This document shows positions 6,625 to 30,670 of a stretch of DNA of 32,000 bases, piece after piece (the first letter of the stretch is position 1; each line of letters opens with the position of its first letter). Under the pieces are notes generated by a model, which worked only from the letters and a program-made list of their open reading frames with translations, was not told where the DNA came from and made no database searches. A program made the position numbers and the translations under genes. Location of the stretch: NCBI GenBank assembly GCA_000025185.1, contig CP001848.1, positions 4,230,001-4,262,000 of the forward strand. The letters run 5' to 3'. The stretch comes from Pirellula staleyi DSM 6068. Lineage in GTDB: Bacteria > Planctomycetota > Planctomycetia > Pirellulales > Pirellulaceae.

Positions 6625-6707
6625 CCCGCAAGTCGACGGTCCAGAAGACCGATTTGCGAGAGGGAAAGATAGCAGGATCGTTCTTCAGCGTCTACGCCGA
6701 AAACCCG

Positions 6708-7760: not shown

Positions 7761-7852
7761 GGCACCACTCAGTGAATGAGGTGTTTGGGCCTAATCTCCT
7801 TTGGCCTACCAGGGGGGGTGAATGTCGTATCGGCACGATCGTTACAAATGGA

Positions 7853-9514: not shown

Positions 9515-9862
9515 GAGGGATCCTTCCCTGGATAGCGTGGCGCTTACGTAGGTCCTCTACGTAGCCTTAAAGTTGGAGCGTAAGTTAGTTCAGATGAATG
9601 CTATCGCTCAATATCAAAACGGCCCGTTTGCTCGCCGGACGTCTAAAATTCACGAAGTTGCTAGAGGTCTGCTAGCGGCCGGGAAGTCCTTTGGCTTGCA
9701 TAAGCTTAGGTAAATCGTGCATGGAAGTTGCGAGATTGATCTACGCGAGATCGGTAGCGCTCTGTAGACTTGTCACCAATCTAAGACACGACTGCTGGCA
9801 CACCCTTGGTAGCTAGCAGCGGGTAATGGTGGAAAGACTTGCGTCCAGGGAGGGAAGCGAGC

Positions 9863-11461
9863 ATGAACGAGCCCGTGCGAAGTTTGCGTCGATTGAGCGT
9901 GGCGATTGTTGCCCGAAATGCGGCAGCTATCATCGAGCGAACGATTCTGTCGGCCCATCGAGTGGCAAGTGAAGTGCTTGTGGTGGATGCTGGCTCCACC
10001 GACGACACCGTGGCGATTGCTCGCACGCACGGCTGTTTGGTCCACCTGCACGAATGGGAAGATAGCTTCGCCGAAGCGCGAAATGCCGCACTGCGACTTG
10101 TCAGTGGCGACTGGATTTTGTGGCTCGATGCGGGCGAGACGATAGAAGAAGCGACAGCCGAACAACTTGTGCCGTTTGTGAAGCAATTTGCTGCGATCGA
10201 CCGCGTCTATCAGTTGCCCGTGGTTGTTCCTGCAGAGCCCGGTTTGGTGGGTGGTGAGCAGATTTATCGCGTACGGCTTCATCCGCGACGTCCGGGAATG
10301 CAGTTTCAGTCGCGCGTGCGGGAAGTGCTCGACAAATCCCTGTTTGCTTTTGGGATGAGCGTGGAATCGCTTCCATTGCCGATTCAGCGAGGAATCGAAG
10401 ATCACGATTTTGAAGTGAAAGCAGCGAAGGCTCGCCGCAATATTAAACTGGCCGATTTGCAGCTCACCGAGCGTGGTCCCTCGGCGGAAATGCACAATTG
10501 CCTGGGGGAAGCGTTCCAGTCGCTGGGAGAGACTGAGCGAGCACGCGTCCATTACGAACAAGCAACGCAGCTCGCCAAAGCGGGAACTCGCGAGCATCTG
10601 GAAGCTTACTACGGCCTGCTCACCGCGATCGATGGCGAGACCGATGATCGCGAGAAACAGCTGGCGCTCTGCATGCAGGGTGTCGAGCATTTTCCACTCG
10701 ATGCGCAGCTTTTGACGGCACTTGGCGGCTATTTGCAGTCGCTTGAGCAGCCTGAGCTGGCGATTCGGGCCTATACCCTGGCGTGGCGCAGTGGCCAGAT
10801 CGAACAAACTCTGTGGCATCTCCCCGACATTCAGCAGATTGCAGCCCACTGCGAGTCGATTTTGCTTTCCTCGCTCGGGCGGGTTGAAGAAGCGGTGCAG
10901 ATGCTCGAAGAAGCGCTTCGCCGGATGCCGGGCGCGCCACGACTGCTCAAACAACTGATTGAACTGCAAACGCGGCTCGGAAACTTCGAGGGAGCTATTC
11001 ACGCCGTCGATCAGCTTCCAGAGCCTGAATTCGACCGGGCTCGCTGGCAAAGTGCGGTGAGTGGACTCGCCTCGTTTTCGCAAGGAAACTGGATCACGGC
11101 CGATCTGCTGCTGACTGCGGCCTGCGAACAAGGGATCGCCGAGCCCCTCTTTTTGCGAACCTGGGTGGAATCCCGCATCCAGCGTGGGCTCCGTTCGGCT
11201 GCTCAGCAAGCTTTAGCCGTTTATCAGCAAGTGGCCCCCGCTCACGAGGCAATTGCAAGGCTCGCTGCGGCTGTTTCGATCCTCCCGCCAGATGTCCCGG
11301 CCGTAAGTCCGGCCAAAGAGCCAATTAAGCCCCTCTCGAAAGAGAATCGGCGATTCGATCGACCAGGACCGCTGGCAGCTCGAAAGCCAGCCCCCAAAAC
11401 AAGTTCGTCCGGTTCAGCGGCCGCATCAGCCGGGGAATCTAGCGAACCACCTGTAGGCTAG
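9863..11461 (+). CDS. GT2 glycosyltransferase with C-terminal TPR-like repeat region
   Basis: The N-terminus has LSVAIVARNAAAIIERTI, VVDAGSTDDT, FAEARNAAL and WILWLDAGE (GT2 DxD-like). The C-terminal ~330 aa are helical repeats with TPR-like A/L/G/Y spacing. ATG 9863 is preferred over TTG 9839 because AGGGAGGGAAG lies just upstream. Confidence 0.8.
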   Translation: MNEPVRSLRRLSVAIVARNAAAIIERTILSAHRVASEVLVVDAGSTDDTVAIARTHGCLVHLHEWEDSFAEARNAALRLVSGDWILWLDAGETIEEATAEQLVPFVKQFAAIDRVYQLPVVVPAEPGLVGGEQIYRVRLHPRRPGMQFQSRVREVLDKSLFAFGMSVESLPLPIQRGIEDHDFEVKAAKARRNIKLADLQLTERGPSAEMHNCLGEAFQSLGETERARVHYEQATQLAKAGTREHLEAYYGLLTAIDGETDDREKQLALCMQGVEHFPLDAQLLTALGGYLQSLEQPELAIRAYTLAWRSGQIEQTLWHLPDIQQIAAHCESILLSSLGRVEEAVQMLEEALRRMPGAPRLLKQLIELQTRLGNFEGAIHAVDQLPEPEFDRARWQSAVSGLASFSQGNWITADLLLTAACEQGIAEPLFLRTWVESRIQRGLRSAAQQALAVYQQVAPAHEAIARLAAAVSILPPDVPAVSPAKEPIKPLSKENRRFDRPGPLAARKPAPKTSSSGSAAASAGESSEPPVG

Positions 11462-11686
11462 GTTTCGCTGGAACAATCACTCCAATCGGACCCTGGACCA
11501 AAGCTGCTGGCGGTACGATTGGCAAATCCCTCACATTCGTTACCTCGGCGTCAGAAACTCGCCAAATCGCAAGGTTTTGCTAAAGCCCCAAAATTGACAC
11601 TTCCGGTCTAGGATATAGGTTTGATTTGTACGCAGCGTGCTTCCCGTCACCTGTGCACACCGAGAAGTCATTCTCACCCCGTGTGA

Positions 11687-11724
11687 GGCGGGGCCGATAT
11701 CCACAGTCGGCCTCGCCTTTTTTT
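11687..11724 (+). terminator. orphan rho-independent terminator (possible 3' end of a small RNA or a long 3' UTR)
   Basis: 11-bp stem: GGCGGGGCCGA (11687-11697) pairs with TCGGCCTCGCC (11707-11717), with one G-U pair. The loop is 9 nt and TTTTTTT follows (11718-11724). It lies 225 nt past the nearest co-directional stop codon. Confidence 0.7.
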
Positions 11725-12150
11725 GTTTCTTGGGAAGATTTCTCCGCCGCAGCCAATGTCGCTTCCAGCGTGAATCGATCGCTGCTATGGGCCCGCCAAT
11801 CGCTTGCTCTCGTGCGGCTACAGTCGCATTTTGGAATCGCTTCTGATTTTCTGTAAGCTTATACACAGAAAACGCTTGCGTTGATTTACAGGGAGCTGTT
11901 TCGCGCCCCAGTCTGGCCCTTCTGGTCATTTTTCGCCGCTGACTATTCCAGCCGCGCCAGTCCGTCGATTCCTGCCGAGGCTGTCCCCTATCAAAAATCG
12001 TCAAACTGCTCAAAAATAGAAGGTTTCGACGATGCTGCTGGCGGCCTGCTGATTACGTTTCCCAGATCGCCCTTTTGGGGGCGATCGAGCACCGCCCAAA
12101 ACGAGCCTCCCACGAACTTTCCCTTGGCGAACTTCCGGAGTTTTGAACTC

Positions 12151-12579
12151 ATGACGATTGATCCTGCTGATTGGAACGAAGAGAAAGCAGACGTGGTGAC
12201 CGGCGTCGATTGGGCGCGTAAGCAGGACTCGCTGGTGAGCATGGATGGAGACGACACCGGCGATTCGGGTGGCGATCTCGACGACTTCGATGAAGAAGAT
12301 TTTGATGACGAGTTCGACGACGATTTTGAAGACGAACTCGACGACGAGTACGATCTGTCGGATCTCGAAGTGACCGAAGAAGATCTTAAAGAAGATGTCG
12401 ATGTGACCGTGCTCGGCGGCGATTTTGTCGACGAAGACGAAGAGCCAGAAGAGCCGCTTGTTCCAGACGAGGAAGAGGCTCCTCCCGAAGAGAAAAAGGG
12501 GAAGTCCAAAGCGAAGCCCAAGGAAGAGGTCGAGGAAGAAGACGACGAAGATGATGACGACTTCGACGACGAAGACTAG
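12151..12579 (+). CDS. hyperacidic low-complexity protein (142 aa), function unknown
   Basis: ATG at 12151 with GGAG at 12137-12140. By my count 69 of 142 residues are Asp/Glu. Aromatic/Leu residues punctuate the acidic runs (DDFDEEDFDDEFDDDFEDELDDEYDL), and there is one short Lys-rich patch (KKGKSKAKPK). The track ORF's TTG-initiated extension from 11881 does not look like protein. Confidence 0.6.
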   Translation: MTIDPADWNEEKADVVTGVDWARKQDSLVSMDGDDTGDSGGDLDDFDEEDFDDEFDDDFEDELDDEYDLSDLEVTEEDLKEDVDVTVLGGDFVDEDEEPEEPLVPDEEEAPPEEKKGKSKAKPKEEVEEEDDEDDDDFDDED

Positions 12580-12691
12580 TCGCTGGTTGCACTTCGATGT
12601 CATCGAGCGCGAGTGTCGGGTGAACCTCGCGCTCTCGGATCGGCTCTCTGCTTAACGCTTTCGACAAATTTCTATTGGGACTTTGCAAGCG

Positions 12692-15600
12692 ATGTTTAAC
12701 AGTGTTCCCGCTAGTGCGCCGTTTCCAAAACTCGAACAAGAGGTTCTGCAGTTCTGGCGGGAAAACAAGATTTACGACGAGTCGCTCGAGCGCCGCAAAG
12801 ATGCCGAGCGTTTTGTCTTCTTCGAAGGGCCGCCGACAGCCAACGGCATGCCGCACCCAGGGCACTGCCTGACGCGCTCGATCAAGGATCTGTTTCCTCG
12901 CTATCAAACGATGCGAGGAAAACTGTGTGAGCGTAAAGCAGGCTGGGACACCCATGGACTTCCTGTCGAAGTGGAAGTCTGCAAAGAGATGGGGATCCAC
13001 TCGAAGGAAGAGATCGAAGCCTTTGGCATCGAGCCCTTTATTCATCGCTGCCAAGCGAGCGTTTGGCGCTACATGCAGCAGTGGGAAAAACTGACCGAAC
13101 GCCTCGGCTTTTGGATCAAACTCGACCAGGCCTACGTCACCTATCACCAGTCGTTCGTCGAATCGGTCTGGTGGTCGCTCAAGCAACTGTTCGATAACGG
13201 TCTTCTGTACCAAGGCCACAAGATCGTTTGGTGGTGGGCCCAAGGCGGGACCGCGCTATCGAGCGGCGAAGTAGGGCAGGGGTATCGCGAAGTCGCCGAC
13301 CCGAGCGTTTACGTCCTGTTTCCGCTGCTCGACGATGCCGGAAATCCCGAAGGAACGTCGCTCCTGGTTTGGACCACCACACCTTGGACACTCCCAAGCA
13401 ACCAGTTCGCTGCAGTCCATCCCGATTTGGATTACGTTGTCGCGCGTGATACCGAAACCGATCAGCGGATCATCCTTGCAGCAGCACTGGTTGAGACGAT
13501 CGCTGCGAAGTCCAAGCGTCCACTGGAAGTCGTCAAAACGCTCAAGGGGAGCGAACTCCTTGGCCGGCGCTATGTGCCACCTTATTCGTATTACTACAGC
13601 CAACTCGGCAGCACGACTGGCAAGCTCGTTGCAGGTGGCGAAGCCTCCATTGCATGGCGTGTGGTAGCTGCCGATTTCGTGACGACCGACAGCGGTAGTG
13701 GCGTCGTGCATCAAGCACCTGCCTTTGGCGAAGTCGACTTCGACGTGCTTGTAGCTGAAAAAGCGAAGTTCGTCGTCGGCGAAGGTCCTGAACTGATCTG
13801 CGCCGTCGGTCCGGATGGCAAGTTCACCGCAGAAGCGCCGACCTACCAAGGTCGCTGGGTGAAGGATTGCGACAAAGAAATTCAGCGTGAACTCAAGGCT
13901 GCTGGCTTGCTTTATCACCAAGAGCAATACCTGCACGACTATCCCTTCTGCTGGCGCGCCGACAACGATCCGCTGATCCAGTACCCACGTCGAAGCTGGT
14001 TCATTCGGACCACCAAGTTCCGCGACGAAATGCTCGCGAGCAACGAGAAAATCAACTGGCTTCCGGGGCATATCAAAGAAGGTCGCTTCGGCAACTTCCT
14101 CGAGAGCAATGTCGACTGGGCCCTTTCGCGCGAACGCTTCTGGGGCACTCCGCTGCCGATCTGGGTCTGCGAGACCACAGGCCAGATGCAGGCGATTGCC
14201 AGCTATGCCGAGCTCGAGCAAAAGCCTGGCGCGAGCGGCTTCGAAGCGTGGGCTAATGCCAAGCAAGCCAATCCCGAACTTGTCGAAGATCTGAAGGTGC
14301 ACAAGCCTTACATCGACAACATCACCTACGACTCGCCGTTTGCCACTGGCGCGAAGATGCGCCGCGTGAGCGAAGTGATCGACTGTTGGTACGACAGTGG
14401 CGCGATGCCATTCGCGCAGTGGGGCTATCCGCACAAGGGAGCCGCTGATTTTCAGCAGCAGTTTCCCGCTGACTTCATCAGCGAAGCAATCGATCAAACC
14501 CGAGGCTGGTTCTATAGCCAACTGGCGATCAGCACGATGCTGTTTGGCAAAGGTGGCGTGAGCGGCGAAGCACAGCCTCGCGAGTATCCGCATCCATTTA
14601 AGAACTGCATCGTGCTTGGACTGATGCTCGGCGAAGATGGCCAGAAGATGTCCAAGAGCAAGCGAAACTATCGCGAGCCCAACGAGATCTTTGATAAGTA
14701 CGGCGCTGATGCACTACGCTGGTATTTCTTTGCGAATCAGGCTCCCTGGACGAGCATTCGCTACAAAGAACAGTCGATCAAAGACAGCATCCCTGAGTTT
14801 CTGTTGCGACTCTGGAACTGCTATTCGTTCTTCGTGATCTACGCCAACATCGACGGCTTCGATCCCTCGAAATTGCTCGCCGATGTCGGTGATGGACAAC
14901 TCGATGCAGCCACGCTTGCCAAAGCCAAGCACTATCGCCCCATCGCCGAACGCGGTGAGCTCGATCGCTGGATCATGGGCGAGTTGCACAAGACTTCCGC
15001 CGACGTCACCAGGCTGATGGATCAGTACGACAACTTCGAAGCTTGCAAGCTTTTGAACGCCTTTGTCGACGGACTATCCAACTGGTTCGTACGTCGTTCG
15101 CGCGAACGTTTTTGGGCTGCCGATAAAACCTCGCCCGAAAAGCTCGACGCCTACTGGACCCTCTATGAGTGCCTGCTCACCACCGCGAAACTCATCGCGC
15201 CGTTCACGCCGTTCCTCGCGGAAACGCTGTGGCAGAACCTCGCGCGGTCAGTTAGCAGCGACGTCCTGAAAAGCGTGCATTTGTGCGATTTTCCTGAGGG
15301 AAATGCAGCGAATGTCGACTCGCTGCTGTCAGAACGAATGAAGCTCTTGCGCGAAATCGCGTCGCTCGGTCTTTCGGCTCGCATGGCGAACAAACTGAAG
15401 GTTCGTCAGCCTTTGTCGCGAGTGGAAGTGATTCTGAGCAACGCGACACATCAAGCGTGGCTCACCGAGCACGACGAACTTTTGCGCGACGAACTGAACG
15501 TCAAAACAATTGACTACGCCACCAAGGCTGACGAGTACATCACCTACCAAGTGCAGCCTAACTTCAAGCGACTCGGTCCCAAGATCGGCAAACTGCTCCC

Positions 15601-16069
15601 CGCCTGCAAAGCAGCGCTCGGTAATGCCGACGGGGCGACGCTCCTAGCGCAGTTGCAAGCCACCGGCAAAGTGGTACTCACTCTTGGCGGCGAGACACTC
15701 GAACTCGACAACGAAGATATCCAGGTCCGCTTACAAGCCAAAGAAGGCTGGGCTGCGGCTCAAGGCTCGGGCTGCGTGGTCGTCCTTTCGACCGAACTTA
15801 CCCCCGCGCTGATTCGCGAAGGTTATGCCCGAGACCTCGTGCGGCTGATTCAAGATCGTCGTAAAGAACTCGGGCTAGACTACAGCGATCGAATTGAAGT
15901 GGGAGTCGTTTCGAACTCGGAAGAACTAGCTTCAGCGGTTCTCGAGCACGCATCGTTCATCGCCAGCGAAACGCTTGCCACGCATGTCGGAACTTCCGCT
16001 CTCGATTGTGAAGCGGTCGAAACTGAACTCGGCGAGATTCCGATTTCGCTTTACGTTCGAAAAGTCTAG
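12692..16069 (+). CDS. ileS: isoleucine--tRNA ligase (type 2 / eukaryote-like class)
   Basis: HIGH-type motif PHPGH in [21 protein letters not shown] motif ([11 protein letters not shown]), a CP1 editing-domain-sized insertion, and total length ~1125 aa. There is no C-terminal Cys4 zinc cluster. ATG 12692 is preferred over TTG 12683. Confidence 0.95.
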
Positions 16070-17064: not shown

Positions 17065-17868
17065 TTGATTCGCCAAACCACCACTGAAGATCGTCGCAAC
17101 CGACTGCTGGAGTTGATCCAGCAGCGCGGCTTTGCGTCGCTGCCCGACTTAGCCGGTCAGCTTCAGGTTTCGGAATCAACAGTCCGCCGTGACCTAGACT
17201 TTCTGGAAGAAACGGGCGTAGCTCAGCGGACTCACGGCGGTGTTTTCTATACCGGCCCGTCCCCCAAACTTGCCCATTTTGACCAGCGGCAGTCGACCCA
17301 TTGGGACAAGAAACGCCAGATTGCGGTGGCTGCGAGTCGCTTAGTTGAAGATGGCGACACACTGCTGCTGGACGGCGGAAGTACCACCTACGAACTAGCG
17401 CAACTCCTTGTGGGGCGACCGCTTCAGGTGGTTACCAATTCGCTACCAGTGGCCAATTTGTTTACCAGTAGTGACCGCGCCGACCTCGTGCTGATTGGTG
17501 GCTATGTCCACGCTCGCACTGGTGTTTCGCTCGGTCCCTACGCCAATCAGATGCTCAGCGGACTTTGCGTTCGCCGTGCGATCATCAGTGTGGCGGGCGT
17601 TAGCGAGCGAGGCTTCTTCAACAGCAACCTGCTGCTGGTAGAAACCGAGCGAGCCATGATGGGAGCCGCCGACGAAGTGATTGTCGTCGCTGATAGCACC
17701 AAGTTTGGTCACACCAGTCTCGCTCACCTTTGCAATTTGAACTTCATCGACACGCTCGTTACCGATCACGAAATCGATCCCACCTGGCAATCAGCCCTCG
17801 AAGAGCAGGGGGTCCGCGTGGTGATTGCCGAGCAGCCTCAAGAACAAACCAATTCGCCTTCGAGCTAA
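17065..17868 (+). CDS. DeoR/GlpR-family transcriptional regulator (sugar-phosphate sensing type)
   Basis: N-terminal HTH (RRNRLLELIQQRGFASLPDLAGQLQVSESTVRRDLDFLEE) and C-terminal DeoR-C effector domain (LLLDGGSTTYELAQLL, VVTNS). TTG start with GGAG 10 nt upstream. Only 29 nt separate it from pduL. Confidence 0.85.
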   Translation: MIRQTTTEDRRNRLLELIQQRGFASLPDLAGQLQVSESTVRRDLDFLEETGVAQRTHGGVFYTGPSPKLAHFDQRQSTHWDKKRQIAVAASRLVEDGDTLLLDGGSTTYELAQLLVGRPLQVVTNSLPVANLFTSSDRADLVLIGGYVHARTGVSLGPYANQMLSGLCVRRAIISVAGVSERGFFNSNLLLVETERAMMGAADEVIVVADSTKFGHTSLAHLCNLNFIDTLVTDHEIDPTWQSALEEQGVRVVIAEQPQEQTNSPSS

Positions 17869-17897
17869 TTCGTAAGCAGTAAGAGCACTACCTAATC

Positions 17898-18605
17898 ATG
17901 AGCAACCTTGCCACTCTCGATCGCGATACTGTCGAACGCATTGTGCGCCAGATCGTCCTCGGAGCCACCGCTGTTCCTTCCGCGAAAGCCGAAGCGCCGC
18001 GAACTCCGAAGCTGATCGTCAGCATCTCGGCCCGCCATTGCCATCTCACCGATGAGCACGTCGAAGTGCTGTTTGGCCCTGGACACAAACTCACGCCCGA
18101 CAAGAACCTCTACCAAGACGGTTTCTATGCCGCTGCCGAAACGGTGATGGTCGTCGGCCCACGTCGACGCATGCTACCGACCGTTCGCGTGCTTGGCCCA
18201 ACGCGTCCTTTCAGCCAAGTCGAACTCGCCTTCACCGACAGCATTTCGCTCGGCATCGATGCACCTGTTCGCCACAGCGGCAACATCAAGGGAACGCCGG
18301 GCTGTGTGCTTGTCGGACCCAAGGGTGTTGTCGAATTGACCGAAGGTGTCATTCGTGCTGCCCGTCACGTCCACATGAACCAAGAAGACGCCGCGTTCTA
18401 CGGCGTGAAGAACGGCGACTTCATGAAACTGCGAGTCGAATCGCCGCAGTGCAGCGTGGTGTTCGAAGACCTTCTGGTCCGCGCAGATAACACCAGCAAA
18501 CTCGAAGTCCACATCGATACCGACGAAGGCAACGCCTGCTATCTCGACTCGGCAACCAAGGTGGAACTCCTTCCACAAACCGAAGGTTGTAAGTGCAAAC
18601 ACTAG
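17898..18605 (+). CDS. pduL: phosphate acyltransferase PduL (BMC phosphotransacylase) with N-terminal encapsulation-peptide-like helix
   Basis: Two PduL repeats carry the ARH-x-H signature ([10 protein letters not shown] and [10 protein letters not shown]). The N-terminal [15 protein letters not shown] is followed by an A/P/S-rich linker. Confidence 0.9.
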
Positions 18606-18692
18606 CGCAGTTGTCTGCGATTCACTGGGTCGCTGGCAATCTCGCTTGATTCTCGAAACTAACGTGTTTTTCTTTTTTCTCTGGAGTATGAA

Positions 18693-19001
18693 ATGGCCAA
18701 AACGAACGAAGCGCTCGGCATGATTGAGACCAAAGGCTTCATTGCCTTGGTTGAAGCTACCGATGCCATGCTGAAAGCTGCAAACGTCGAATTCCTCGGT
18801 TGGGACAAGGTCGGCAGCGGTCTTGTTTCGGCATTCGTCACCGGCGACGTCGCCGCTGTGAAGTCGGCTACCGATGCCGGCGCTGCAGCTGCTGGTCGCA
18901 TCGGCGAAGTGGTCAGCGTGCAAGTCATTCCTCGTCCACACGAAGACCTCCACATCGTTCTTCCACCATCGATCAAGCGCGCTCGTCCTTCGGTCGAATA
19001 G
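18693..19001 (+). CDS. BMC shell protein, single-domain hexamer type (BMC-H)
   Basis: [26 protein letters not shown], pore-loop [23 protein letters not shown]: the Pfam00936 pattern. It has a 15-aa basic C-terminal tail. GGAG lies 6 nt upstream of the ATG, preceded by a 16-nt pyrimidine tract. Confidence 0.95.
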
Positions 19002-19062
19002 TCGCCCGGTCAGCAGCAAGTCACCTCTGAACTTAAGTTCTGTTTTGCAAGGAATACCTTAG

Positions 19063-19332
19063 ATGTCGAGTGCAATTGGATTGATCGAAACCAAAGGTCT
19101 CGTCGGCCTTGTTGAAGCCACCGATGCCATGGCCAAAGCCGCTAACGTGCAAATCGTCAAGCGCATTGGTATCGGCGGTGCCTTCATCACCACGATTGTT
19201 CGTGGCGACGTGGGTAGCGTTCGTGCCGCTGTTGAAGCTGGTGCCCAAGCCGCTCAGCAAACCGGCGAACTCGTCGGCAGCCACGTCATCGCCCGTCCTT
19301 CGGAAGGTCTCGTGGAAGCGTTCCTGAGCTAA
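19063..19332 (+). CDS. BMC shell protein, single-domain hexamer type (BMC-H), second paralog
   Basis: [54 protein letters not shown]. Confidence 0.95.
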   Translation: MSSAIGLIETKGLVGLVEATDAMAKAANVQIVKRIGIGGAFITTIVRGDVGSVRAAVEAGAQAAQQTGELVGSHVIARPSEGLVEAFLS

Positions 19333-19404
19333 GTCGTCCGCGCGATGCATCGTCTGTGTCGCGCCAGGGTAATGAGGAAAGTTCATCAAAGGAGTGTCTG
19401 CATC

Positions 19405-20589
19405 ATGAAGGTGCTAGTCGCCAATCTAGGATCCACGAGCTTTAAGTACCGTCTGTTCGACATGTCGAGCGAGACGCAACTGGCACGTGGTGGCGTTGAA
19501 CGAATTGGATCTCCCGAGTCACCTTGCTTCGTCGAAATCGGATCGAGTCGAACCGAACTTCGCACGCCTGTGCCGGATCATGCCGTCGCGGTGCGAACGT
19601 GTCTCGCTCAGCTCACCGATCCAGTTTCGGGATGCCTCAAGGATGCTTCGGAAGTCGCAGCGATTGGCTTCAAGGCAGTGCATGGCGGCCGCGTCAGCGG
19701 TGTGCAGCGTGTGACGCCCGATGTCCTGGCTGCGATGGAAGAGATGAACCTCGTTGCTCCGGCGCACAATCCACCCTACATCGCAGCCATGCGGCTTCTG
19801 GGCGAGAAACTGCCAGAAATTCCGCTTGTGGCCGCGTTTGAAACTGGATTTCACAACACGATCGCCGACCGACTTCGCACCTATCCCATTCCTCATGAAT
19901 GGGAAGAAAAGCTGCACATTCGCCGCTGGGGTTTCCACGGAGCAAGTCACCGCTATATCGCCATGCGAACCGCCGAACTCATCGGCCGCTACGATCTGCG
20001 CGTGATCTCGTGCCACCTCGGAGGCTCCAACAGTTTGTGCGCGATTCGCGGACAGCAAAGCGTTGCGACCACGATGGGAATGAGCCCTCAAACCGGATTG
20101 CCACACAACAATCGTGTCGGGGATTTCGATCCCTTTGCGATTCCGATGGTGATGAAAGAGTTTGGGCTCTCGCTGCATCAGGTGCTCGACACGCTGGCCG
20201 AAAAAAGTGGTCTGCTCGGACTATCGGGAATCAGCGGAGATATTCGCGATCTCGAGCAAGCAGCAGCCGAAGGTAAATCGCGTGCACGACTCGCGCTCGA
20301 TGTTTTCATCGCCGAAATTCGCCGTCATTTAGGTGGGCTTCTGGTCGAACTAGGTGGCGTCGATGCCGTCGTGTTCACCGGAGGAATTGGCGAGAACAGC
20401 CGAGCAACTCGTGCAGGTGTCTGTGCCGGACTCAGTGAACTCGGGATCGATCTCGATCTCGCGAAGAATGAAACGCATCGCGGCGAAGGTTGCCTCTCGT
20501 CGCCCGCAAGCCGTGCTCAGATTTGGGTGATTCCGACCAACGAAGAGTTGATCGTGGCACGCCAAACAAAGCACTTGCTGGAAGGATAA
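19405..20589 (+). CDS. ackA: acetate/propionate-family kinase (acyl-phosphate -> acid + ATP)
   Basis: [15 protein letters not shown] (N-terminal ASKHA phosphate loop), [24 protein letters not shown] 19405 has AAAGGAG at 19388-19394. The longer track ORF from 19345 is rejected. Confidence 0.9.
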
Positions 20590-20594
20590 TTTCG

Positions 20595-20909
20595 ATGTTC
20601 GTTGCGAAAGTAACCGGATCACTCGTCTCGACGCAGAAGGTGGCGTCGATGGTGGGCTACAAGCTCCTCATCGTCGAACCTTATCGCGTCGAGCCCAAGG
20701 ATCGCACGACACTCGTCACCACAGGACGCACGTTTGTAGCCGTCGACACCTTGGGTGCCGGCGTGGGGGACTACGTCCTGCTGACGCAAGGGAGCAGCGC
20801 TCGTCTCACTCCCGAGACTAAGTCACTCCCCATCGATGCCGTCGTGATCGGGATCGTCGATACGGTGCATGTCGACACGGGATGCGTTTATTCCCGCGAA
20901 AACAGCTAA
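20595..20909 (+). CDS. BMC vertex protein (EutN/CcmL family, BMC-P), paralog 1
   Basis: MFVAKVTGSLVSTQK and AVDTLGAGVGDYVL fit the Pfam03319 pattern. The ATG lies 5 nt after the ackA stop, with GGAAGGA upstream. Confidence 0.9.
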   Translation: MFVAKVTGSLVSTQKVASMVGYKLLIVEPYRVEPKDRTTLVTTGRTFVAVDTLGAGVGDYVLLTQGSSARLTPETKSLPIDAVVIGIVDTVHVDTGCVYSRENS

Positions 20910-20990
20910 GGCTTCGTTCCGCTCGTCATGCATCGCGCTTCGCAGCGAACCTAACTACTCCGCCCAAAAACACTCCAATCGAGTTTGAAT

Positions 20991-22430
20991 ATGCAGATCA
21001 ACGAAGAGCTTATCCGCAACGTCGTCGCCAAAGTGCTCGCCGAGGTCAATCGCGGCGCACATGCTGGCAGCAAATCTTTTGCTGGCCGCAATGGCGTGTT
21101 TACTTGTCCGGATGAAGCTGTCGCTGCCGCTCGCACCGCTTTCGAGCAACTCTCGGAGCGAGGCCGCGAAGAACGCAAGCGAATCATCGATCACATCCGC
21201 CGCATTTCGATCGATCAGTCGGTCGAACTCGGCACGATGGAAATGAACGAAACGAAAATCGGCCGCTTGCAGCACAAGATCGAAAAGCTGCATACACTCG
21301 GGATGAAGACCCCCGGTGTCGAGTTCCTTCGCTCGGAAGTTTATAGCGGCGATCATGGCCTCGCGGTCATCGAGCACGCACCCTTTGGAGTGATCGGTGC
21401 CATCACTCCCGTCACCCACTCGCTCCCCACCATCACCGGCAATGCTGTGAGCATGATTGCGGCTGGTAATGCCCTGGTCGTGAACCCACACCCCAGTGGT
21501 AAGAAAGTGGCTGCCGAAGGTGTGCGTCGTTTCAACGCGGCGATCTACAAAGATCTCGGCATCGACAACCTGATCAGTGTGATTGCCGAACCGACCCTCG
21601 AGACTGCCAACTCACTGTTCGCTCATCGTGGTGTGAACATGATTTGCGTGACAGGCGGTCCCGCAGTCGCTCGCGCAGCGCTGAAGAGTGGCAAACGGGC
21701 CGTGGTTGCTGGTCCTGGTAACCCACCTGTAGTCGTCGACGAAACAGCCGACCTCGATCGGGCTGCCCGCGCCATCATTCAAGGTGGTGCTTATGACAAC
21801 AACTTGCTCTGCATCGCCGAGAAAGAAGTCTTCGTGGTCGCCAGCGTCTTCGACGCCATGATGGCCGCCATGGAACGAGCTGGCGCTGTCCGACTGAATG
21901 CCAAAGAGGTCGATGCTTTGACCAAAGCCGCCATCATTCAAGTGGGTGAAGGGGAGCATAAGCACGACGCTCCGAGCAAGGATTTCCTCGGTCAAGATGC
22001 TGCGGTCCTCGCTCGCGGTGCCGGCAAATCGGTACCAGCCAATGTGGAACTCCTCTTCGGCGAAACCGACGAGCACAACCCATTCGTTCCTGTCGAACAG
22101 ATGATGCCGTTCGTTCCGTTCGTTCGTTGCCGCGACGTCGATCATGCGATTGAACTAGCCAAGAAGTACGAACATGGCTTCCGGCACACCAGCATCATTC
22201 ACAGCAATAACGTTCGAAACATGACCCGCATGGGTCGTATCCTCGACACCACGCTATTCGTGAAAAACGGACCTTGCATGGCGGCTCTAGGACTGGGTGG
22301 CGAAGGCTACTTGTCGTTCTCAATCGCTGGTCCCACGGGTGAAGGGGTCACGACACCACTTACTTTCACCCGCGAACGTCGCTGCTCGCTGATCGACGAT
22401 CTCTACATCCTCGGCAAGCCCAAGAGCTAA
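20991..22430 (+). CDS. CoA-acylating aldehyde dehydrogenase (PduP/EutE-like) with N-terminal encapsulation-peptide-like helix
   Basis: The catalytic-Cys context [10 protein letters not shown] and [14 protein letters not shown] are typical of BMC acylating AldDH. The N-terminal [17 protein letters not shown] precedes a short linker. Confidence 0.9.
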
Positions 22431-22461
22431 CCCAGGTTTGAGTGTCACACAGGAGCCTTCG

Positions 22462-22719
22462 ATGCAAGTCGCACTCGTGGTTGGAACGGCCACCGCAACG
22501 CTGAAGCACAGCTCGATGAAGTCGCAAAAGCTGCTCATCGTGCAGCCGATGCTCGTCGATGGCAGCACCCCCGATGGCGACCCTCAAGTGGCGGTCGATG
22601 CCGTGGGGGCAGGCAAAGGGGAACGTGTGCTGATCAGCAGTGATGGTCGCTACATGCGAGATGTTTTGAAGGCGGATGCTACTCCGGTTCGCTGGAGTGT
22701 GATCGGAATCTGTGATTAA
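22462..22719 (+). CDS. BMC vertex protein (EutN/CcmL family, BMC-P), paralog 2
   Basis: MQVALVVGTATATLKH, AVDAVGAGKGERVL. AGGAG at 22451-22455. Confidence 0.9.
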   Translation: MQVALVVGTATATLKHSSMKSQKLLIVQPMLVDGSTPDGDPQVAVDAVGAGKGERVLISSDGRYMRDVLKADATPVRWSVIGICD

Positions 22720-22745
22720 CCAACTCGCTGCATAGACGTGAATTT

Positions 22746-23492
22746 GTGAACGCTACCGAAGTCGAAAACCTGGTTCGCGAAGTGCTGCGGCAGCTTACTG
22801 CCGTTAGCTCCGCCGCGCCTGGTTCGACCGCTGTCGCGTCGCCGAAACCCCCAGTCGAAACTCCCCGAACAGCACCCATTCCTAGTGGAACGGCAGTCGT
22901 TCGCGATTCGCTGGTAACACTCGCTTCGATCGAAGACCGCTTGACCGGCATTTCGCGGATGGTCGTTTCGTCGCGAGCTATCGTTACGCCAGCTGTGGTC
23001 GATGAACTTCGCAAACGGGGAATTTCGATCGTTCGGTCGGCGGATGCCATCGCTGGTACAACGCTCGCCAATCTCGGGCGGGAATTGGTGGTTACGCTCG
23101 CCTCCGATGGTCTGGCCGCACTGCGAACCGATTTGGTGAGTGTGCTTCGCCGGACAATTCCTCAGCTGGAACTGATCGATAACTGCCGCTCGCCCAAGCT
23201 CGAAGATGTGCTGGCCGAACTAACGTCGCGCGTCGTATCGCGTGGCCGTGTGGGATTGCTCCTGACGTCGACGACCGCTGTAGCAGCTGCCCTGGCGAAC
23301 CGCACCCGCGGTGTTCGAGCCTTGGTCGCCACGAGTGGCCAGTCGATCGACGACGCAGCCGACACACTGGCTCCCAATTTGATTGTGGTCGACCGCTTGA
23401 AAGTCAACGTCTGGCAACTCCGCGCGATTGCCTCGCGGCTGGTGTCGCACGGTGTAATGACCCCTGCGGCTCCCTGGAACCAATTGCTCTAG
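22746..23492 (+). CDS. BMC-associated protein of unknown function: EP-like N-terminus, Pro-rich linker, EutQ-N-like module, degenerate RpiB/LacAB-like domain
   Basis: GTG start, the only start-like codon after the upstream in-frame stop apart from a CTG. It sits between two pentamer genes with gaps of 26 and 14 nt. Domain reading is given in the findings. Confidence 0.7.
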   Translation: MNATEVENLVREVLRQLTAVSSAAPGSTAVASPKPPVETPRTAPIPSGTAVVRDSLVTLASIEDRLTGISRMVVSSRAIVTPAVVDELRKRGISIVRSADAIAGTTLANLGRELVVTLASDGLAALRTDLVSVLRRTIPQLELIDNCRSPKLEDVLAELTSRVVSRGRVGLLLTSTTAVAAALANRTRGVRALVATSGQSIDDAADTLAPNLIVVDRLKVNVWQLRAIASRLVSHGVMTPAAPWNQLL

Positions 23493-23506
23493 GAGCTTCA
23501 GCAGCC

Positions 23507-23791
23507 ATGCGAATTGCCAAAATCGTCGGAACTGTCACCCTCAGCCGTTGCCACGACACCTTCGTGGGAGCGAGCTTGCGATTAGCAGTTCCGATGACCT
23601 TGCCCGAACTGCGCGGCGAGACTCAGCCTGCAGCCGATGAAATCGTCGTTTGGGACGACCTCGGCGCCGGTCTCGGCTCGATGATTGCCGTCAGTGAAGG
23701 TGGCGAAGCGGCTCAGCCGTTCCGCCCGAAAGACAAACCGGTCGATGCCTACGCAGCAGCGATTTTCGACGACCTGCGTCTCGACCCCTAA
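23507..23791 (+). CDS. BMC vertex protein (EutN/CcmL family, BMC-P), paralog 3 (divergent)
   Basis: MRIAKIVGTVTLSRCH, WDDLGAGLGSMIAV. It carries an internal acidic/Pro insertion, LPELRGETQPAADE. Confidence 0.85.
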   Translation: MRIAKIVGTVTLSRCHDTFVGASLRLAVPMTLPELRGETQPAADEIVVWDDLGAGLGSMIAVSEGGEAAQPFRPKDKPVDAYAAAIFDDLRLDP

Positions 23792-23868
23792 ACCGAAACC
23801 AACTTACCACCGTGCGGAACTTGGTTCCGCGAACCATACATTTCACTTCCTACTGAGGAATCTAGATC

Positions 23869-24732
23869 GTGGCGAATATTCACAAGCTGAAGCAAGACAT
23901 CTGCGAGATCGGTCGTCGCCTCTATAACAAAGGCTTCGCCGCTGCGAATGACGGTAACATCACGATTCGTGTCAGCGAGAACGAAGTGCTCGTTACACCC
24001 ACCATGCACTCGAAGGGTTTTCTCAAGCCCGAAGATATTTGCATGATGGATATGTCGGGCAAGCAGATTGGCGGCACCAAGAAACGCTCGAGCGAGGCGC
24101 TGTTGCACCTCGAGATCTTTCGCGAACGTCCCGAAGTGAAAAGTGTGGTGCACTGTCATCCACCACATGCCACCGCGTTTGCCATCGCTCGTGAGCCGAT
24201 TCCCCAGTGCGTGCTTCCCGAAGTCGAAGTCTTTCTGGGTGATGTTCCAATCACCATGTATGAGACTCCTGGCGGAAAAGAATTCGCAGAGACGGTGCTC
24301 CCCTTCGTCAAGAAGACCAACGTCATCATCCTGGCCAATCACGGCACAGTGAGCTACGGCGATAACGTCGAACAAGCCTACTGGTGGACGGAAATTCTCG
24401 ACGCCTATTGCCGCATGCTGATGCTCGCCAAAGATCTCGGCCGCGTGAACTACTTCAGCGAGAAGAAAGAACGCGAGCTGCTTGAGCTGAAAGACAAGTG
24501 GGGCTGGAAAGATCCTCGCAATACACCTGAATACAAAGATTGCGACATCTGCGCCAACGACATCTTCCGCGACAGCTGGAAACAATCGGGCGTGGAACGC
24601 AAAGCCTTTGAGGCTCCCCCTCCGATGGCACCATCTGCCAAGAAAGAGGCTGCTCCTGCAGCCGCCGGAGATCAGGAAGCACTCGTCAGACTCATCACCG
24701 AACGTGTGCTCGCCGAGCTCTCGAAGAAGTAG
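23869..24732 (+). CDS. class II (metal-dependent) aldolase, fuculose-/rhamnulose-1-phosphate aldolase-like, with C-terminal encapsulation-peptide-like helix
   Basis: GNITIR, E-x-x-LH (SSEALLHLEIF), VVHCHPPHATAF and LANHGTVSYG form the Aldolase_II pattern with Zn-binding His residues. The C-terminal extension is an A/P/K-rich linker followed by QEALVRLITERVLAELSKK. GTG start with GAGGAA upstream. Confidence 0.9.
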   Translation: MANIHKLKQDICEIGRRLYNKGFAAANDGNITIRVSENEVLVTPTMHSKGFLKPEDICMMDMSGKQIGGTKKRSSEALLHLEIFRERPEVKSVVHCHPPHATAFAIAREPIPQCVLPEVEVFLGDVPITMYETPGGKEFAETVLPFVKKTNVIILANHGTVSYGDNVEQAYWWTEILDAYCRMLMLAKDLGRVNYFSEKKERELLELKDKWGWKDPRNTPEYKDCDICANDIFRDSWKQSGVERKAFEAPPPMAPSAKKEAAPAAAGDQEALVRLITERVLAELSKK

Positions 24733-24819
24733 TTCTCTGAGAACTTCTTCACGAAAATTCGGCCGGAAGTGTCCGTTCTACTCTCGAACTCTTGTTATCT
24801 TTGACGCTGTGGTGTGATC

Positions 24820-25764
24820 ATGAAAGTTTCGATCATCGGTGGTGCTGGTCTCGTCGGTTCGAGTGCCGCTTTTGCGCTGCAGTGCGGCGGTGTGGCCAGT
24901 GAAATTGCTTTACTCGACGTGAACCTCGATCTAGCAGGTGGGCATGCCCTCGACTTGCTGCATGGTGGGCCAAGTACCGCCGATCAAGTGATTACCGCTG
25001 GTGGCTATGAGCATGTTCCCGATAGCGACATTATCTGCATCACTGCCGGTTTGCGTCGTAAGCCTGATGAAAGTCGACTCGATCTGATCAATCGTAACAC
25101 CGACCTGTTCGTCTCGATCCTCACCGAGATCCAGAAGGTGGGTTACAAGAAAGAGGCGATTGTGATTGTGGTGAGCAATCCGGTCGACATCCTTACCTAC
25201 GTTGCTGCCGATCGCTTGAACTTGCCTCACTCGCAGGTGATTGGTCTCGGAACGCAGCTCGATACGATTCGTTTCCGAAGTCTGATCGCGCAGCAGTTGA
25301 AGGTCGCTCCTTCGCAAGTGCAAGCACTGATCCTGGGGGAGCATGGCGACAGCATGGTGCCGATCTGGTCGAGCGCGACGATTGCTTCGCTGCCACTGGA
25401 TAAGTTTCCAGGCTGGAATCTTCGTCTGGCGGACGAACTCTTTACCCGCACCAAGGGTTCGGGAGCCGAGGTGATTAAGAAGAAAACCGGCGCTGGCTTT
25501 GCCGTGGGGATTGCGATCCGCGATCTTGTCGATTCGATCATCCTCGACCAGAAACGGATTCTGCCGATCTCGTCGATCCAAAATGGTTGCTACGACATTC
25601 GCGACGTCGCGCTGAGTGTTCCAACAGTTCTCGGCCGCAAGGGTGTGGTGGCCCGTCACGAAATCGAACTTTGGCCGAAGGAAGTGCAGCTGCTTCGCAA
25701 GAGTGGTTTGGTGCTCCGCCAAACCCTCGAACAAGTGCTCGCCCGCATCGGCCGAAAGAAGTAG
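24820..25764 (+). CDS. L-lactate/malate dehydrogenase-family NAD oxidoreductase
   Basis: Rossmann motif KVSIIGGAGLVGSSAAF, AGLRRKPDESRLDL, SNPVD, IGLGTQLDTIRFR, and catalytic His in LGEHGDS. ATG 24820 is preferred over GTG 24814. Confidence 0.9.
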   Translation: MKVSIIGGAGLVGSSAAFALQCGGVASEIALLDVNLDLAGGHALDLLHGGPSTADQVITAGGYEHVPDSDIICITAGLRRKPDESRLDLINRNTDLFVSILTEIQKVGYKKEAIVIVVSNPVDILTYVAADRLNLPHSQVIGLGTQLDTIRFRSLIAQQLKVAPSQVQALILGEHGDSMVPIWSSATIASLPLDKFPGWNLRLADELFTRTKGSGAEVIKKKTGAGFAVGIAIRDLVDSIILDQKRILPISSIQNGCYDIRDVALSVPTVLGRKGVVARHEIELWPKEVQLLRKSGLVLRQTLEQVLARIGRKK

Positions 25765-25794: not shown

Positions 25795-25951
25795 GACGCT
25801 ATCCCCGGCGTCCTACTCCCTCAAGAAAAATTGGCACGCCCCCTAAATTCACGAATCTGTGGGGGGGAGGTAGCCGTCTTACGTATGAATCCCGCAGGTT
25901 GTGCCACTCGGCAAGAGCCTGCCGTGTCTTTAAAATCTCGGGGAATTCGTG

Positions 25952-28042
25952 ATGCTCCTCTCTGCTACTCGCTGGCTTCGTGGTGCGCTGGCCGTCATTG
26001 TGCTGGCCACTTCCACTGGACTCTTATCGGCTCAAGACCCTGCTGCGGAGGGTGAAGCAAAGCCTGCTCTACCGCTGGGACGCGTGGTGATGTTCAGCAG
26101 TGGTGTGGCGTTCTACGAGCGCCGCGGCGATGTCGAAGGGGATGCCACCATCGACCTGCGTTTTAATACGCGCGACATCAACGACCTGCTCAAGAGCATG
26201 GTTCTCGAGGACCTGGGTGGCGGTCAGATCTCGACCGTTTCTTACGGCAGCAAAGATCCGATCACACGGACGCTCCGCACCTTTTCGATCGATCTCACCA
26301 CAAGTCCGACGCTCGGAGACTTGCTGGCCCAAATTCGTGGCGAGCGGATCGAACTTGATAGCCCCACACCCACCAGTGGCGTGATTGTGGGGATTGAAAA
26401 ACGGGATCAAAAAGTGGGGGATCAAGTCGTACAGACTTCGATTCTTACTCTGCTAACCGACGAAGGCTTGCGGAACATTTCGCTCGACAACATTGGCCGC
26501 ATCAAGCTGTCGAATCCCAAGCTCGATGCCGAACTTCGTCAGGCACTGCTGGTGCTGGCGATGGGGAAGTCAGCCGACAAGAAGTCGGTCTCGCTTAGCT
26601 TCACAGGCAAAGGAAAACGCCCCGTTCGTGTCGGCTACATTCAAGAGTCGCCGATCTGGAAGACCAGCTATCGCCTGGTGCTCGACGACGAGAAACAGCC
26701 GCTACTGCAAGGCTGGGCGATTGTCGAGAACACGACCGAGGAAGACTGGAACAACGTGAATTTGACGCTGATTAGCGGGCGTCCGATTTCGTTCACGATG
26801 GATCTTTATCAGCCGCTTTACATCGACCGGCCCGAGGTTAAGCCAGAACTCTACGCCTCGCTGACACCGCGTACCTATGATCAATCGATGGCGGAGGCGG
26901 ATCGCGAGTTTGAGGCGCTGGCGCACGATGAAAAAAGCCGCGATGCTGCTGCCAAGCCAGCCATGGCCAACCGCCGGATGGCCGAAGCAGCCTCTAATGG
27001 CGTTGAATTGCAGATGATGAAGCGCGCCGAAGATAAGGCTTTCAATCCGGCCAGTGGCGTGCAGTCGGTTGCCACCGCCAGCGACGTGGGCGAGCTCTTT
27101 CAATACCGCATCGCAACCCCTGTCTCGCTCGAACGTCAAAAGTCGGCGATGCTGCCGATCGTGAACGATTCGGTGAAGGGTGAGAAGGTTTCGATTTACA
27201 GCGAGTCGTCGCATGCCAAGCATCCCCTCAGTGGTGTTCGGCTGAAGAACAGCACCGATCTGCACCTGATGCAAGGTCCGATCACGGTGTTCGACGGTGG
27301 TGCCTACGCCGGTGATGCTCAGATTCAGGATCTACAGCCTGGAACCGAGCGGCTGATCAGCTACGCCCTCGATCTCGATACCGAAGTGGCTCCTTCGATC
27401 GAAGGCTTGCCCGAGGAACTGGTGAGCGTGAAGGTGGTGCGTGGTGTTCTCGAGTCGTCGCGCAAGTATGGTCGCAAGAAGAACTACGTGATCAAGAATT
27501 CATCGAAGAAGACGAAGCAAGTTCTGATCGAATACCCTGTCGAGGCATCGTGGAATCTGATCGAACCCAAAGAGGCGACCGAGAAGACTCGCGACCTCTA
27601 TCGGTTTGCCGTCGCGGCCGAGCCCGGTGTCGCTGCCAATCTGCTGGTGCGTGAAGAGCGTGTCGATACTCAGCGGGTGGCACTAGCCAACTGCGATGAC
27701 AACATGATCCGCTTCTATATCCAAGCCGCCGTTGTTTCACCTGCCCTGAAAGAAAAACTGGGCGAAGTGATTAAACGGAAAGAGGGGCTCGCTCTGCTGG
27801 TGGCTAAGCGTGGCGAACTCGAGCGTCAAGTGACGGTGATCTTCGAAGAGCAAACCCGCATTCGCCAAAACATGGAACAGCTCCCTAAAGACTCGGACTT
27901 GTTCCGCCGCTACGTCACGAAGTTTAACGAGCAGGAAGATAAGGTGGAGCAGCTTCGCGAGCAGATCAAGAAAGCGATCGACGACGAGAATAACGGTCGC
28001 AACGATCTGAATAACTTCCTCTCGAACATCGACCTGTCCTAA
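25952..28042 (+). CDS. secreted DUF4139-like protein with C-terminal coiled coil
   Basis: Signal-peptide-like N-terminus (LRGALAVIVLATSTGLLSAQD). The block SPIWKTSYRLVLDDEKQPLLQGWAIVENTTEEDWNNVNLTLISGRP matches my recollection of the DUF4139/TIGR02231-type signature (W-x-x-x-Y..., T-G/E-E-D-W-x-x-V-x-L-x-L). The last ~110 aa are heptad-like and charged. Confidence 0.6.
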   Translation: MLLSATRWLRGALAVIVLATSTGLLSAQDPAAEGEAKPALPLGRVVMFSSGVAFYERRGDVEGDATIDLRFNTRDINDLLKSMVLEDLGGGQISTVSYGSKDPITRTLRTFSIDLTTSPTLGDLLAQIRGERIELDSPTPTSGVIVGIEKRDQKVGDQVVQTSILTLLTDEGLRNISLDNIGRIKLSNPKLDAELRQALLVLAMGKSADKKSVSLSFTGKGKRPVRVGYIQESPIWKTSYRLVLDDEKQPLLQGWAIVENTTEEDWNNVNLTLISGRPISFTMDLYQPLYIDRPEVKPELYASLTPRTYDQSMAEADREFEALAHDEKSRDAAAKPAMANRRMAEAASNGVELQMMKRAEDKAFNPASGVQSVATASDVGELFQYRIATPVSLERQKSAMLPIVNDSVKGEKVSIYSESSHAKHPLSGVRLKNSTDLHLMQGPITVFDGGAYAGDAQIQDLQPGTERLISYALDLDTEVAPSIEGLPEELVSVKVVRGVLESSRKYGRKKNYVIKNSSKKTKQVLIEYPVEASWNLIEPKEATEKTRDLYRFAVAAEPGVAANLLVREERVDTQRVALANCDDNMIRFYIQAAVVSPALKEKLGEVIKRKEGLALLVAKRGELERQVTVIFEEQTRIRQNMEQLPKDSDLFRRYVTKFNEQEDKVEQLREQIKKAIDDENNGRNDLNNFLSNIDLS

Positions 28043-28987: not shown

Positions 28988-30670
<1,683 letters not shown>

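Follow-up and report, generated by a model that had tools for sequence, protein, structure and literature searches.

A planctomycete microcompartment protein with a PduM-like module and a degenerate isomerase fold, encoded between two pentamer genes

What does the protein do that planctomycetes encode between two shell-pentamer genes of their fucose/rhamnose microcompartment locus? The question is raised by a stretch of 32,000 nucleotides from Pirellula staleyi DSM 6068 (assembly GCA_000025185.1, contig CP001848.1, positions 4,230,001 to 4,262,000 of the forward strand), which we call the window and in whose numbering all coordinates are given. The window holds a bacterial microcompartment (BMC) locus of the Planctomycetes/Verrucomicrobia (PVM) type and, packed between its BMC-P2 and BMC-P3 genes, an open reading frame (ORF) of 248 amino acids, which an initial annotation, read by eye from the sequence, took for an encapsulated pseudo-isomerase. 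We put a probability of about 50% on the reading that the gene product is a linker of core and shell, or an assembly factor, of the PduM type, to which a pseudo-isomerase domain has been added that would oligomerise or bind cargo. Most likely it is no enzyme but serves in assembly or as an adaptor, because a putative targeting helix and a module shared with PduM are combined here with an RpiB fold that lacks the catalytic residues, and we think that the emphasis should move from the pseudo-isomerase to a PduM-like linker with an optional pseudo-isomerase domain.

What are the parts of the protein?

A first search returned 11 homologues, and a profile built on them matched, among 1.84 billion representative proteins, 2,472 protein clusters (at the 50% identity level) with E≤1e-3, so that this is not a chance ORF; 614 of the clusters matched at E≤1e-30, and the best 150 listed are nearly all 220-285 amino acids long. 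A family alignment of 148 members (A2) served both for the conservation counts and for AlphaFold2, whose model has a mean predicted local distance difference test score (pLDDT) of 86.5 and divides the chain into a helix (residues 3-21), a low-confidence stretch (22-48), an alpha/beta module (49-103) and a Rossmann-like domain (114-235), the hinge between the last two being short and flexible (block 101-110, pLDDT 52). Together with the family alignments, the model bears out the four-part build that had been proposed by eye, and the ORF, which leaves gaps of 26 and 14 nucleotides to its neighbours, gives a translation identical to the strings quoted at that time. The gene and its parts are as follows.

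22746..23492, forward strand: the whole gene, 248 amino acids, GTG start (ORF list; the N-terminus aligns with Met1 of the homologues)
22752..22808, forward strand: amphipathic helix of the encapsulation-peptide type (TEVENLVREVLRQLTAV), residues 3-21 (AlphaFold2 helix; family consensus)
22809..22889, forward strand: Pro/Ala/Ser/Thr-rich flexible linker, residues 22-48 (pLDDT 59-62; length and sequence vary across the family)
22890..23054, forward strand: alpha/beta module, residues 49-103, with a T81-P82...D86 motif (NCBIfam matches, hhalign, AlphaFold2)
23079..23453, forward strand: divergent RpiB/LacAB-fold domain, residues 112-236 (Foldseek, PDB profile search, PF02502, NCBIfam RpiB models, hhalign)

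Three residues of the module, T81, P82 and D86, are invariant in all 148 members, and M1, V10, V13, L17, L88, T174, A180, A184, N185, R186, R191, A192 and N211 are conserved in at least 90% of them. Compared with the homologue P0002 (69% identical overall), the helix of the window protein is 62% identical, the linker 37%, the module 73% and the C-terminal domain 78%; because the last two stand so far above the linker, module and C-terminal domain are both under purifying selection in the window lineage, and the RpiB-like domain is thus still constrained where it is present.

At the N-terminus the protein has the build of an encapsulation peptide, that is, a terminal amphipathic helix followed by a poorly conserved, flexible linker. 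The helix has the family consensus D-I-E-x-I-V-R-E-V-L-x-R-L, in which V10, V13 and L17 are the positions that reach the 90% level, and it shares the pattern acidic-x-x-[LIV][LIV]R-x-[LIV][LIV] with PduL and the aldehyde dehydrogenase (AldDH) at their N-termini and with the C-terminus of the aldolase of the window, in agreement with the likeness to the targeting helices of this operon that had been noticed earlier. Residues 1-20 moreover align with residues 1-20 of PduM in hhalign, and AlphaFold2 places a helix at 3-21 in both proteins. To judge from these patterns, the helix may serve to target the protein to the enzyme core or to the inner surface of the shell.

Is the middle module related to EutQ or to PduM?

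The module, whose elements run strand-strand-helix-strand-helix-strand-helix in the AlphaFold2 model, had been likened to the N-terminus of EutQ. That likeness is real at the level of a motif, since the N-terminal region of EutQ from E. coli and Salmonella (residues ~1-60) has a similar I-I-T-P-x-A-R-E motif and a similar preceding strand, but it is weak, and the module is closer to the C-termini of PduM and of TIGR02536 ('eut_hyp'), an uncharacterised family of ethanolamine-utilisation operons. When the 148 family members were scanned against NCBIfam, 63 matched TIGR02536, the best database match of the module, while the two PduM models, TIGR04493 and NF011957, were matched by 21 and 20 members and the EutQ model by only 3; the EutT model was touched by 2, and unrelated families by 1-3 members each. 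The best E-values were 1.7e-5 for TIGR02536 and 9.8e-5 for TIGR04493, and the matched stretch was always the module, which falls on positions 104-153 of 153 in PduM, 157-205 of 207 in TIGR02536 and 21-62 of 233 in EutQ.

Profile-to-profile comparison points the same way. Against an alignment of 25 true PduM proteins the module gives an hhalign probability of 72% (E 3.4e-5, PduM positions 114-163), and the full-length alignment is colinear with PduM, helix on helix (1-20) and module on module, whereas against the EutQ N-terminus only 23 columns align (E 4e-3), a weak, motif-level likeness. An AlphaFold2 model of Salmonella PduM (pLDDT 91.8) has the same order of elements in residues 114-161. 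The query sequences were validated, PduM scoring 249 bits against the PduM model and EutQ 484 bits against the EutQ model. The module is, we conclude, homologous to the C-terminal module of PduM. The protein still has no assigned function, as was stated at the outset, and the link with PduM now supplies a functional context.

How far does the likeness to PduM (PF15953/TIGR04493) go? Both proteins begin with an amphipathic helix, both contain a module of ~45 residues in which strands and helices follow one another alike and which has a V-T-x-x-A-R-D/E...I-x-L motif, and both are encoded immediately 5' of a pentamer gene, pduM lying 4 nucleotides upstream of a BMC-P (PF03319) gene in a Klebsiella pdu locus and our gene 14 nucleotides upstream of BMC-P3; a core–shell role would be a further likeness. 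They differ in that the PduM module is C-terminal and follows a body of ~90 residues, in place of which the PVM protein has a disordered linker, and in that an RpiB-fold domain follows the module here. PduM itself is not RpiB-like: the idea that it has such a fold and is homologous to the PVM protein throughout was rejected when its model found no significant structural match in a Foldseek search of the PDB (best E 0.03), as was the idea that it consists of two tandem copies of the module (hhalign E 0.73 for the second copy).

Other searches set bounds to these relationships. Neither the window protein alone nor the family members matched PF15953, a sequence search with the module alone against PDB chains gave matches at chance level only, and a word-index search with a 54-column module profile returned only five short proteins (80-95 amino acids), of which P0160, the one examined, is a short form of the same gene. 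As for TIGR02536, only its last ~45 positions match, and the remainder of this 207-residue family is unrelated to the PVM protein. EutQ (PRK15457/PF06249) differs by its C-terminal cupin domain, for which the protein gave no match, EutQ-model matches being confined to the N-terminal positions 21-62. We also observed that residues 6-87 of E. coli EutQ match the EutA reactivase model at its N-terminus (NF007991, positions 2-87 of 467, E 3.3e-5), so that EutQ may not be the only Eut protein with the module.

What is left of the isomerase?

The proposal that the C-terminal domain has an RpiB/LacAB fold is supported. In Foldseek the 45 best matches of the AlphaFold2 model in the PDB are all RpiB/LacAB proteins (best E 9e-7, probability 1.00), aligned over ~140 columns with a template modelling score normalised to the target of 0.66-0.80 and an identity of 13-19%. 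A search of the PDB with the family profile finds LacB, a galactose-6-phosphate isomerase, at E 6e-5 and 15 RpiB chains at E<0.01. The window protein alone gives no Pfam match, PF02502 included, whereas 88 of the 148 family members match PF02502 at E≤0.01 (best 6.7e-7) and 84-85 match the NCBIfam RpiB models, with scores of 10-27 bits that lie far under the curated cut-offs of 88-325 bits. Alignment by hhalign to E. coli RpiB, in a sequence 100% identical to PDB 1nn4, covers 129 columns (E 7e-5) and, together with the HMM alignment, pairs the residues of the active site as follows.

Cys66 of E. coli RpiB: Thr174 in the window protein; Thr in 135 of 148 members, Cys never among the top five residues listed
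His99 of E. coli RpiB: Thr207 in the window protein; S/A/T in the family
Asn100 of E. coli RpiB: Leu208 in the window protein; V/I/L in the family
Asn103 of E. coli RpiB: Asn211 in the window protein; kept in the family
Asp9-His10 of E. coli RpiB: Ala119-Ser120 in the window protein (hhalign; a low-confidence stretch of the alignment)

In RpiB, Cys66 is the catalytic base and His99 opens the ring (roles as given in PMC11585597). The loss of catalytic residues that had been read from the sequence thus stands, Cys66, His99, Asn100 and Asp9-His10 all being replaced, and the substitution at the catalytic base is itself conserved. Compared with the RpiB/LacAB isomerases (PF02502; E. coli RpiB, PDB 1nn4), the PVM protein keeps the Rossmann-like fold, the A-N-K/R and G-V/I-R-A motifs and the equivalent of Asn103, and differs in that base, ring-opening His and Asp-His pair are replaced and helix, linker and module are added. 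An annotation of such genes as "RpiB/LacA/LacB isomerase" probably names the wrong activity.

Most of the family have further residues in common that the window protein does not: Cys182 is present in 129 of 148 members, Cys-Pro at 240-241 in 114 of 148 and Arg238 in most, where the window protein has A182 (23289-23291), P240 (23463-23465) and M238, and its closest relatives do likewise. A five-residue insertion, DGLAA (residues 121-125, window 23106-23120), follows the first RpiB-like strand in the window protein and is found in ~5 of 148 members.

A dead isomerase in a microcompartment has a precedent in the sugar-phosphate utilising (SPU) type, whose RPI protein (pfam02502) has Asp in place of Cys66, shows negligible activity as an isomerase, binds the signature aldolase in a 1:1 complex and has been proposed to help in packing the core (PMC11585597). 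It is like the PVM protein in being an RpiB-family protein without the catalytic Cys, encoded in an aldolase-based microcompartment locus. The differences are considerable: SPU RPI is a bona fide PF02502 protein that keeps His99 and has Asp at Cys66, whereas the PVM protein, only ~13-19% identical to RpiB structures, has Thr there and is without His99/Asn100 and Asp9/His10; SPU RPI has no PduM-like module; and its partner is a class I aldolase (DERA), where the PVM locus has a class II signature aldolase. The PVM protein would be the second dead RpiB-fold protein in an aldolase-based microcompartment, which suggests that the fold has been put to structural use recurrently.

Is the gene a fixed part of the locus?

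The neighbours of the gene and the locus as a whole are these.

22438..22719, forward strand: BMC-P2 (EutN/CcmL pentamer), upstream neighbour (PF03319, E 3e-24)
23507..23791, forward strand: BMC-P3 (EutN/CcmL pentamer), downstream neighbour (PF03319, E 5e-19)
17065..25764, forward strand: PVM locus, from DeoR to the Ldh/Mdh-type dehydrogenase (Pfam scans; order the same in 80 Planctomycetota genomes)

By Pfam scans of the neighbours, the locus runs from a DeoR regulator through PduL, two BMC-H, acetate kinase, BMC-P1 and AldDH to BMC-P2, which ends at 22719, 26 nucleotides before the 248-amino-acid ORF, and then on, 14 nucleotides beyond it, from BMC-P3 at 23507 to the class II aldolase and the Ldh/Mdh-type dehydrogenase. 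This is the gene set published for the fucose/rhamnose microcompartment of the Planctomycetes/Verrucomicrobia (PMC4207490), and our gene is probably pvmL, a name that follows from gene order only, because the published letters PvmB/G/J/O fit its position (PMC6620236).

A genome scan, run with alignment A1 because A2 was too diverse for it and with one genome per species, yielded 80 loci, all from Planctomycetota (Pirellulales, Thermoguttaceae, Planctomycetaceae and others), and in 80 of 80 the order AldDH, P2, our gene, P3, aldolase is kept as far as the contigs extend, so that orthologues do hold the same position in other loci. In five of these loci (L008, L050, L067, L075, L079) acetate kinase, AldDH, PduL or BMC-P1 is split into 2-3 tblastn pieces, which suggests frameshifts, assembly errors or insertions in those contigs of metagenome-assembled genomes.

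What varies is the length of the gene. In 8 of the 80 genome loci (L039, L060, L062, L072-L074, L076 and L078), one of them from the cultured Aeoliella straminimaris, and also in L082, it encodes helix, linker and module only (83-96 amino acids; at ~6001-6260 in most of these loci), the ORF ending just after the module and P3 following 3-146 nucleotides further on. A hidden or split RpiB-like domain was rejected for these loci, since a six-frame hmmsearch at maximum sensitivity found no RpiB-like sequence within ±6 kb (best E 0.09). To avoid circularity, a second survey was anchored on BMC-P3, independently of the gene itself: of 80 metagenome loci, 70 were informative, with 44 long forms, 1 intermediate form, 20 short forms (L085-L097 and others) and 5 loci without the gene (L111, L128, L148, L156, L157), in which P3 follows P2 directly. 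Short forms overall span 80-96 amino acids, some long forms have a strongly diverged C-terminal domain, and the loci whose P3 is closest to that of the window are mostly short-form, though the window has the long form.

Helix and module are thus present in about 93% of loci and the RpiB-like domain in about 63-90%, depending on the sample: the former are the conserved core, the latter is an optional addition. Because short forms make up about 10-30% of related loci and lack it, the domain is dispensable, and the series of variants therefore speaks against a catalytic step on which the pathway depends; now and then the gene as a whole can be done without or has its place elsewhere. For the encapsulated pseudo-isomerase first proposed this means that the loss of catalytic residues holds good, whereas the notion that the isomerase domain is the heart of the protein has been weakened by the short forms.

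How might the protein work, and what else could it be?

What is known of PduM makes a useful starting point. A functional signal sequence makes up its first 23 residues, and it binds the cargo core and co-localises with it (PMC11463388, PMC9132943); upon its loss the core partly separates from the shell and the shells become oversized, and PduM mediates the attachment of shell and core (PMC11463388, PMC9132943). For the PVM protein we envisage a beads-on-a-string build, non-catalytic, with three parts that would act in assembling the fucose/rhamnose compartment. The N-terminal helix would anchor the protein on the enzyme core or on the inside of the shell in the way of encapsulation peptides, as we infer because of its sequence pattern and its alignment with the validated PduM signal sequence. 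The module of ~50 residues would then carry out the conserved task of the family, to link the cargo core to the shell, reaching towards shell, pentamers or cargo, and/or to control closure of the shell, a role proposed because of the PduM genetics. Finally, the RpiB-fold domain may be an accessory body that oligomerises, as RpiB does into dimers and tetramers, and/or has a binding partner, for instance the aldolase or a sugar phosphate, which would make the linker multivalent; here we reason by analogy, most closely with the RPI of SPU microcompartments, which is inactive and binds DERA.

Several observations weigh against this proposal, and we set them out together. The family members score only 11-22 bits against the PduM models, where the cut-offs are 50 and 179, and the likeness is confined to ~45 residues and the helix, with no counterpart of the PduM body (24-113). 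Because five related loci are without the gene, it is not universally required. The searchable literature yielded no experiment on the 248-amino-acid protein. The aldolase has its C-terminal targeting helix in long-form, short-form and gene-less loci alike, so that there is no genomic sign of recruitment of the aldolase by the domain, and the idea that the RpiB-like domain stands in for an absent aldolase helix finds no support. Lastly, several of the positions that line the pocket are strongly conserved (T174, N185, R186, R191, N211 and D216-P217, with C182 and C240 in most members), and such a pocket could be a ligand site or the seat of a new activity instead of part of a mere scaffold.

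The last of these points leads to the idea of a ligand-sensing pseudo-enzyme, whose dead RpiB pocket would bind a sugar phosphate (the substrate or dihydroxyacetone phosphate) and couple the metabolite level to condensation of the cargo or permeability of the shell. Binding of a sugar phosphate had already been proposed in the initial annotation, and the pocket is rich in conserved Asn and Arg, with a Gly-Gly-x-Arg in most members at the place of the phosphate-binding Arg133 of RpiB. Yet in the window protein Met takes the place of Arg238 and the conserved Cys pair is absent, the C-terminal tail is aligned with low confidence, and the short forms make the whole domain optional, so we consider a sensor unlikely.

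About as unlikely, in our view, is a pentamer (vertex) assembly factor, with a module that docks on BMC-P2 or BMC-P3 and controls the insertion of vertices, and hence the size and closure of the compartment. Here the position of the gene is the main attraction, being invariably between two pentamer genes where the gene is present, just as pduM is directly 5' of pduN, and without PduM the shells are enlarged or elongated (PMC9132943, PMC11463388). PduM, however, co-localises with cargo and not with shell assemblies once the two are separated (PMC9132943), adjacency of genes alone is no proof of contact between their products, and the five gene-less loci have P2 and P3 side by side all the same.

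A re-purposed catalytic enzyme is a little less probable again. It would use a new set of residues (for example Thr174, Asp216 and Arg186/Arg191, with Cys182/Cys240 in most members) to convert, inside the compartment, one of the sugar phosphates or aldehydes of the fucose/rhamnose pathway, and it would explain both why positions in and near the former active-site loop are conserved in a family-specific way and the purifying selection on the domain in the window lineage; RpiB of M. tuberculosis, as far as its citation in PMC11585597 goes, also illustrates that the catalytic base can move. On the other side stand the replacement of all five residues, Asp9, His10, Cys66, His99 and Asn100; the absence from the window protein of C182, C240 and R238, retained in most of the family; and the tenth to third of related loci that lack the domain, and the few that lack the gene, yet have complete pathway genes. 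Nor does the PVM pathway, as accepted, call for a further isomerase (PMC4207490, PMC6620236).

A protein that acts from outside the compartment, unencapsulated and EutQ-like, to promote the formation or distribution of multiple compartments is very improbable: the first 100 residues of EutQ are needed for binding of the shell protein EutM in vitro and it has been proposed that EutQ binds EutM on its cytosol-facing side (PMC4827028), and the module has its weak likeness to the EutQ N-terminus, but EutQ is the weakest of the three module relatives, and the N-terminal helix matches lumen-targeting peptides and the core-targeting signal sequence of PduM.

Why does it matter?

How the core of a metabolosome is attached to its shell is an open question, and PduM is among the few proteins known to act there. 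As late as 2024 PduM was said to have no homologue known beyond Pdu compartments (PMC11463388). Should the module link hold, the PVM compartment, which is very widespread, has a relative of PduM. In Planctomycetes these compartments serve to break down fucose and rhamnose, and they are of importance for algal-polysaccharide turnover. The natural variants, namely full length, module only and absent, amount to a ready-made deletion series. The protein is built from known kinds of parts, and its main value lies in the link between PduM and a second class of microcompartment and in this series of natural truncations.

We also entertain, as a tentative and somewhat doubtful generalisation, that the T-P-x-A-R-D module of ~45 residues is an unrecognised domain of many metabolosomes, found in PduM, TIGR02536, the N-termini of EutQ and EutA and the PVM protein, typically encoded next to pentamer genes, and that it would be a general coupler of core to shell or vertex. 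The PVM version would then display the domain both in a minimal form (helix, linker and module, 80-96 amino acids) and fused to a pseudo-RpiB, and would give the first PduM homologues from beyond Pdu compartments as well as a tractable minimal model.

What lies around the locus?

Upstream of the PVM locus the window encodes the C-terminal part of a bacterial alpha-2-macroglobulin, an ABC transporter and a cluster of GT8 and GT2 glycosyltransferases, together with a class I aminoacyl-tRNA synthetase (PF00133 tRNA-synt_1, its C-terminus a DUF5915), all within 42-2030, 5524-11461 and 12683-16069, a context unrelated to the finding. Directly 3' of the locus, at 25949-28042 on the forward strand, lies the gene for a 697-amino-acid protein with a DUF4139 domain, a hydrophobic N-terminus that resembles a signal peptide by eye and a C-terminus that looks like a coiled coil. 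A few kilobases 3' of the locus (28988-30670, forward strand) there is a dehydratase of the IlvD/Edd family, whereas in L082 an FGGY sugar kinase and a rhamnose isomerase (RhaA) follow the locus on the opposite strand (8428-12261, reverse strand); the genes for upstream sugar activation are therefore sited differently between genomes.

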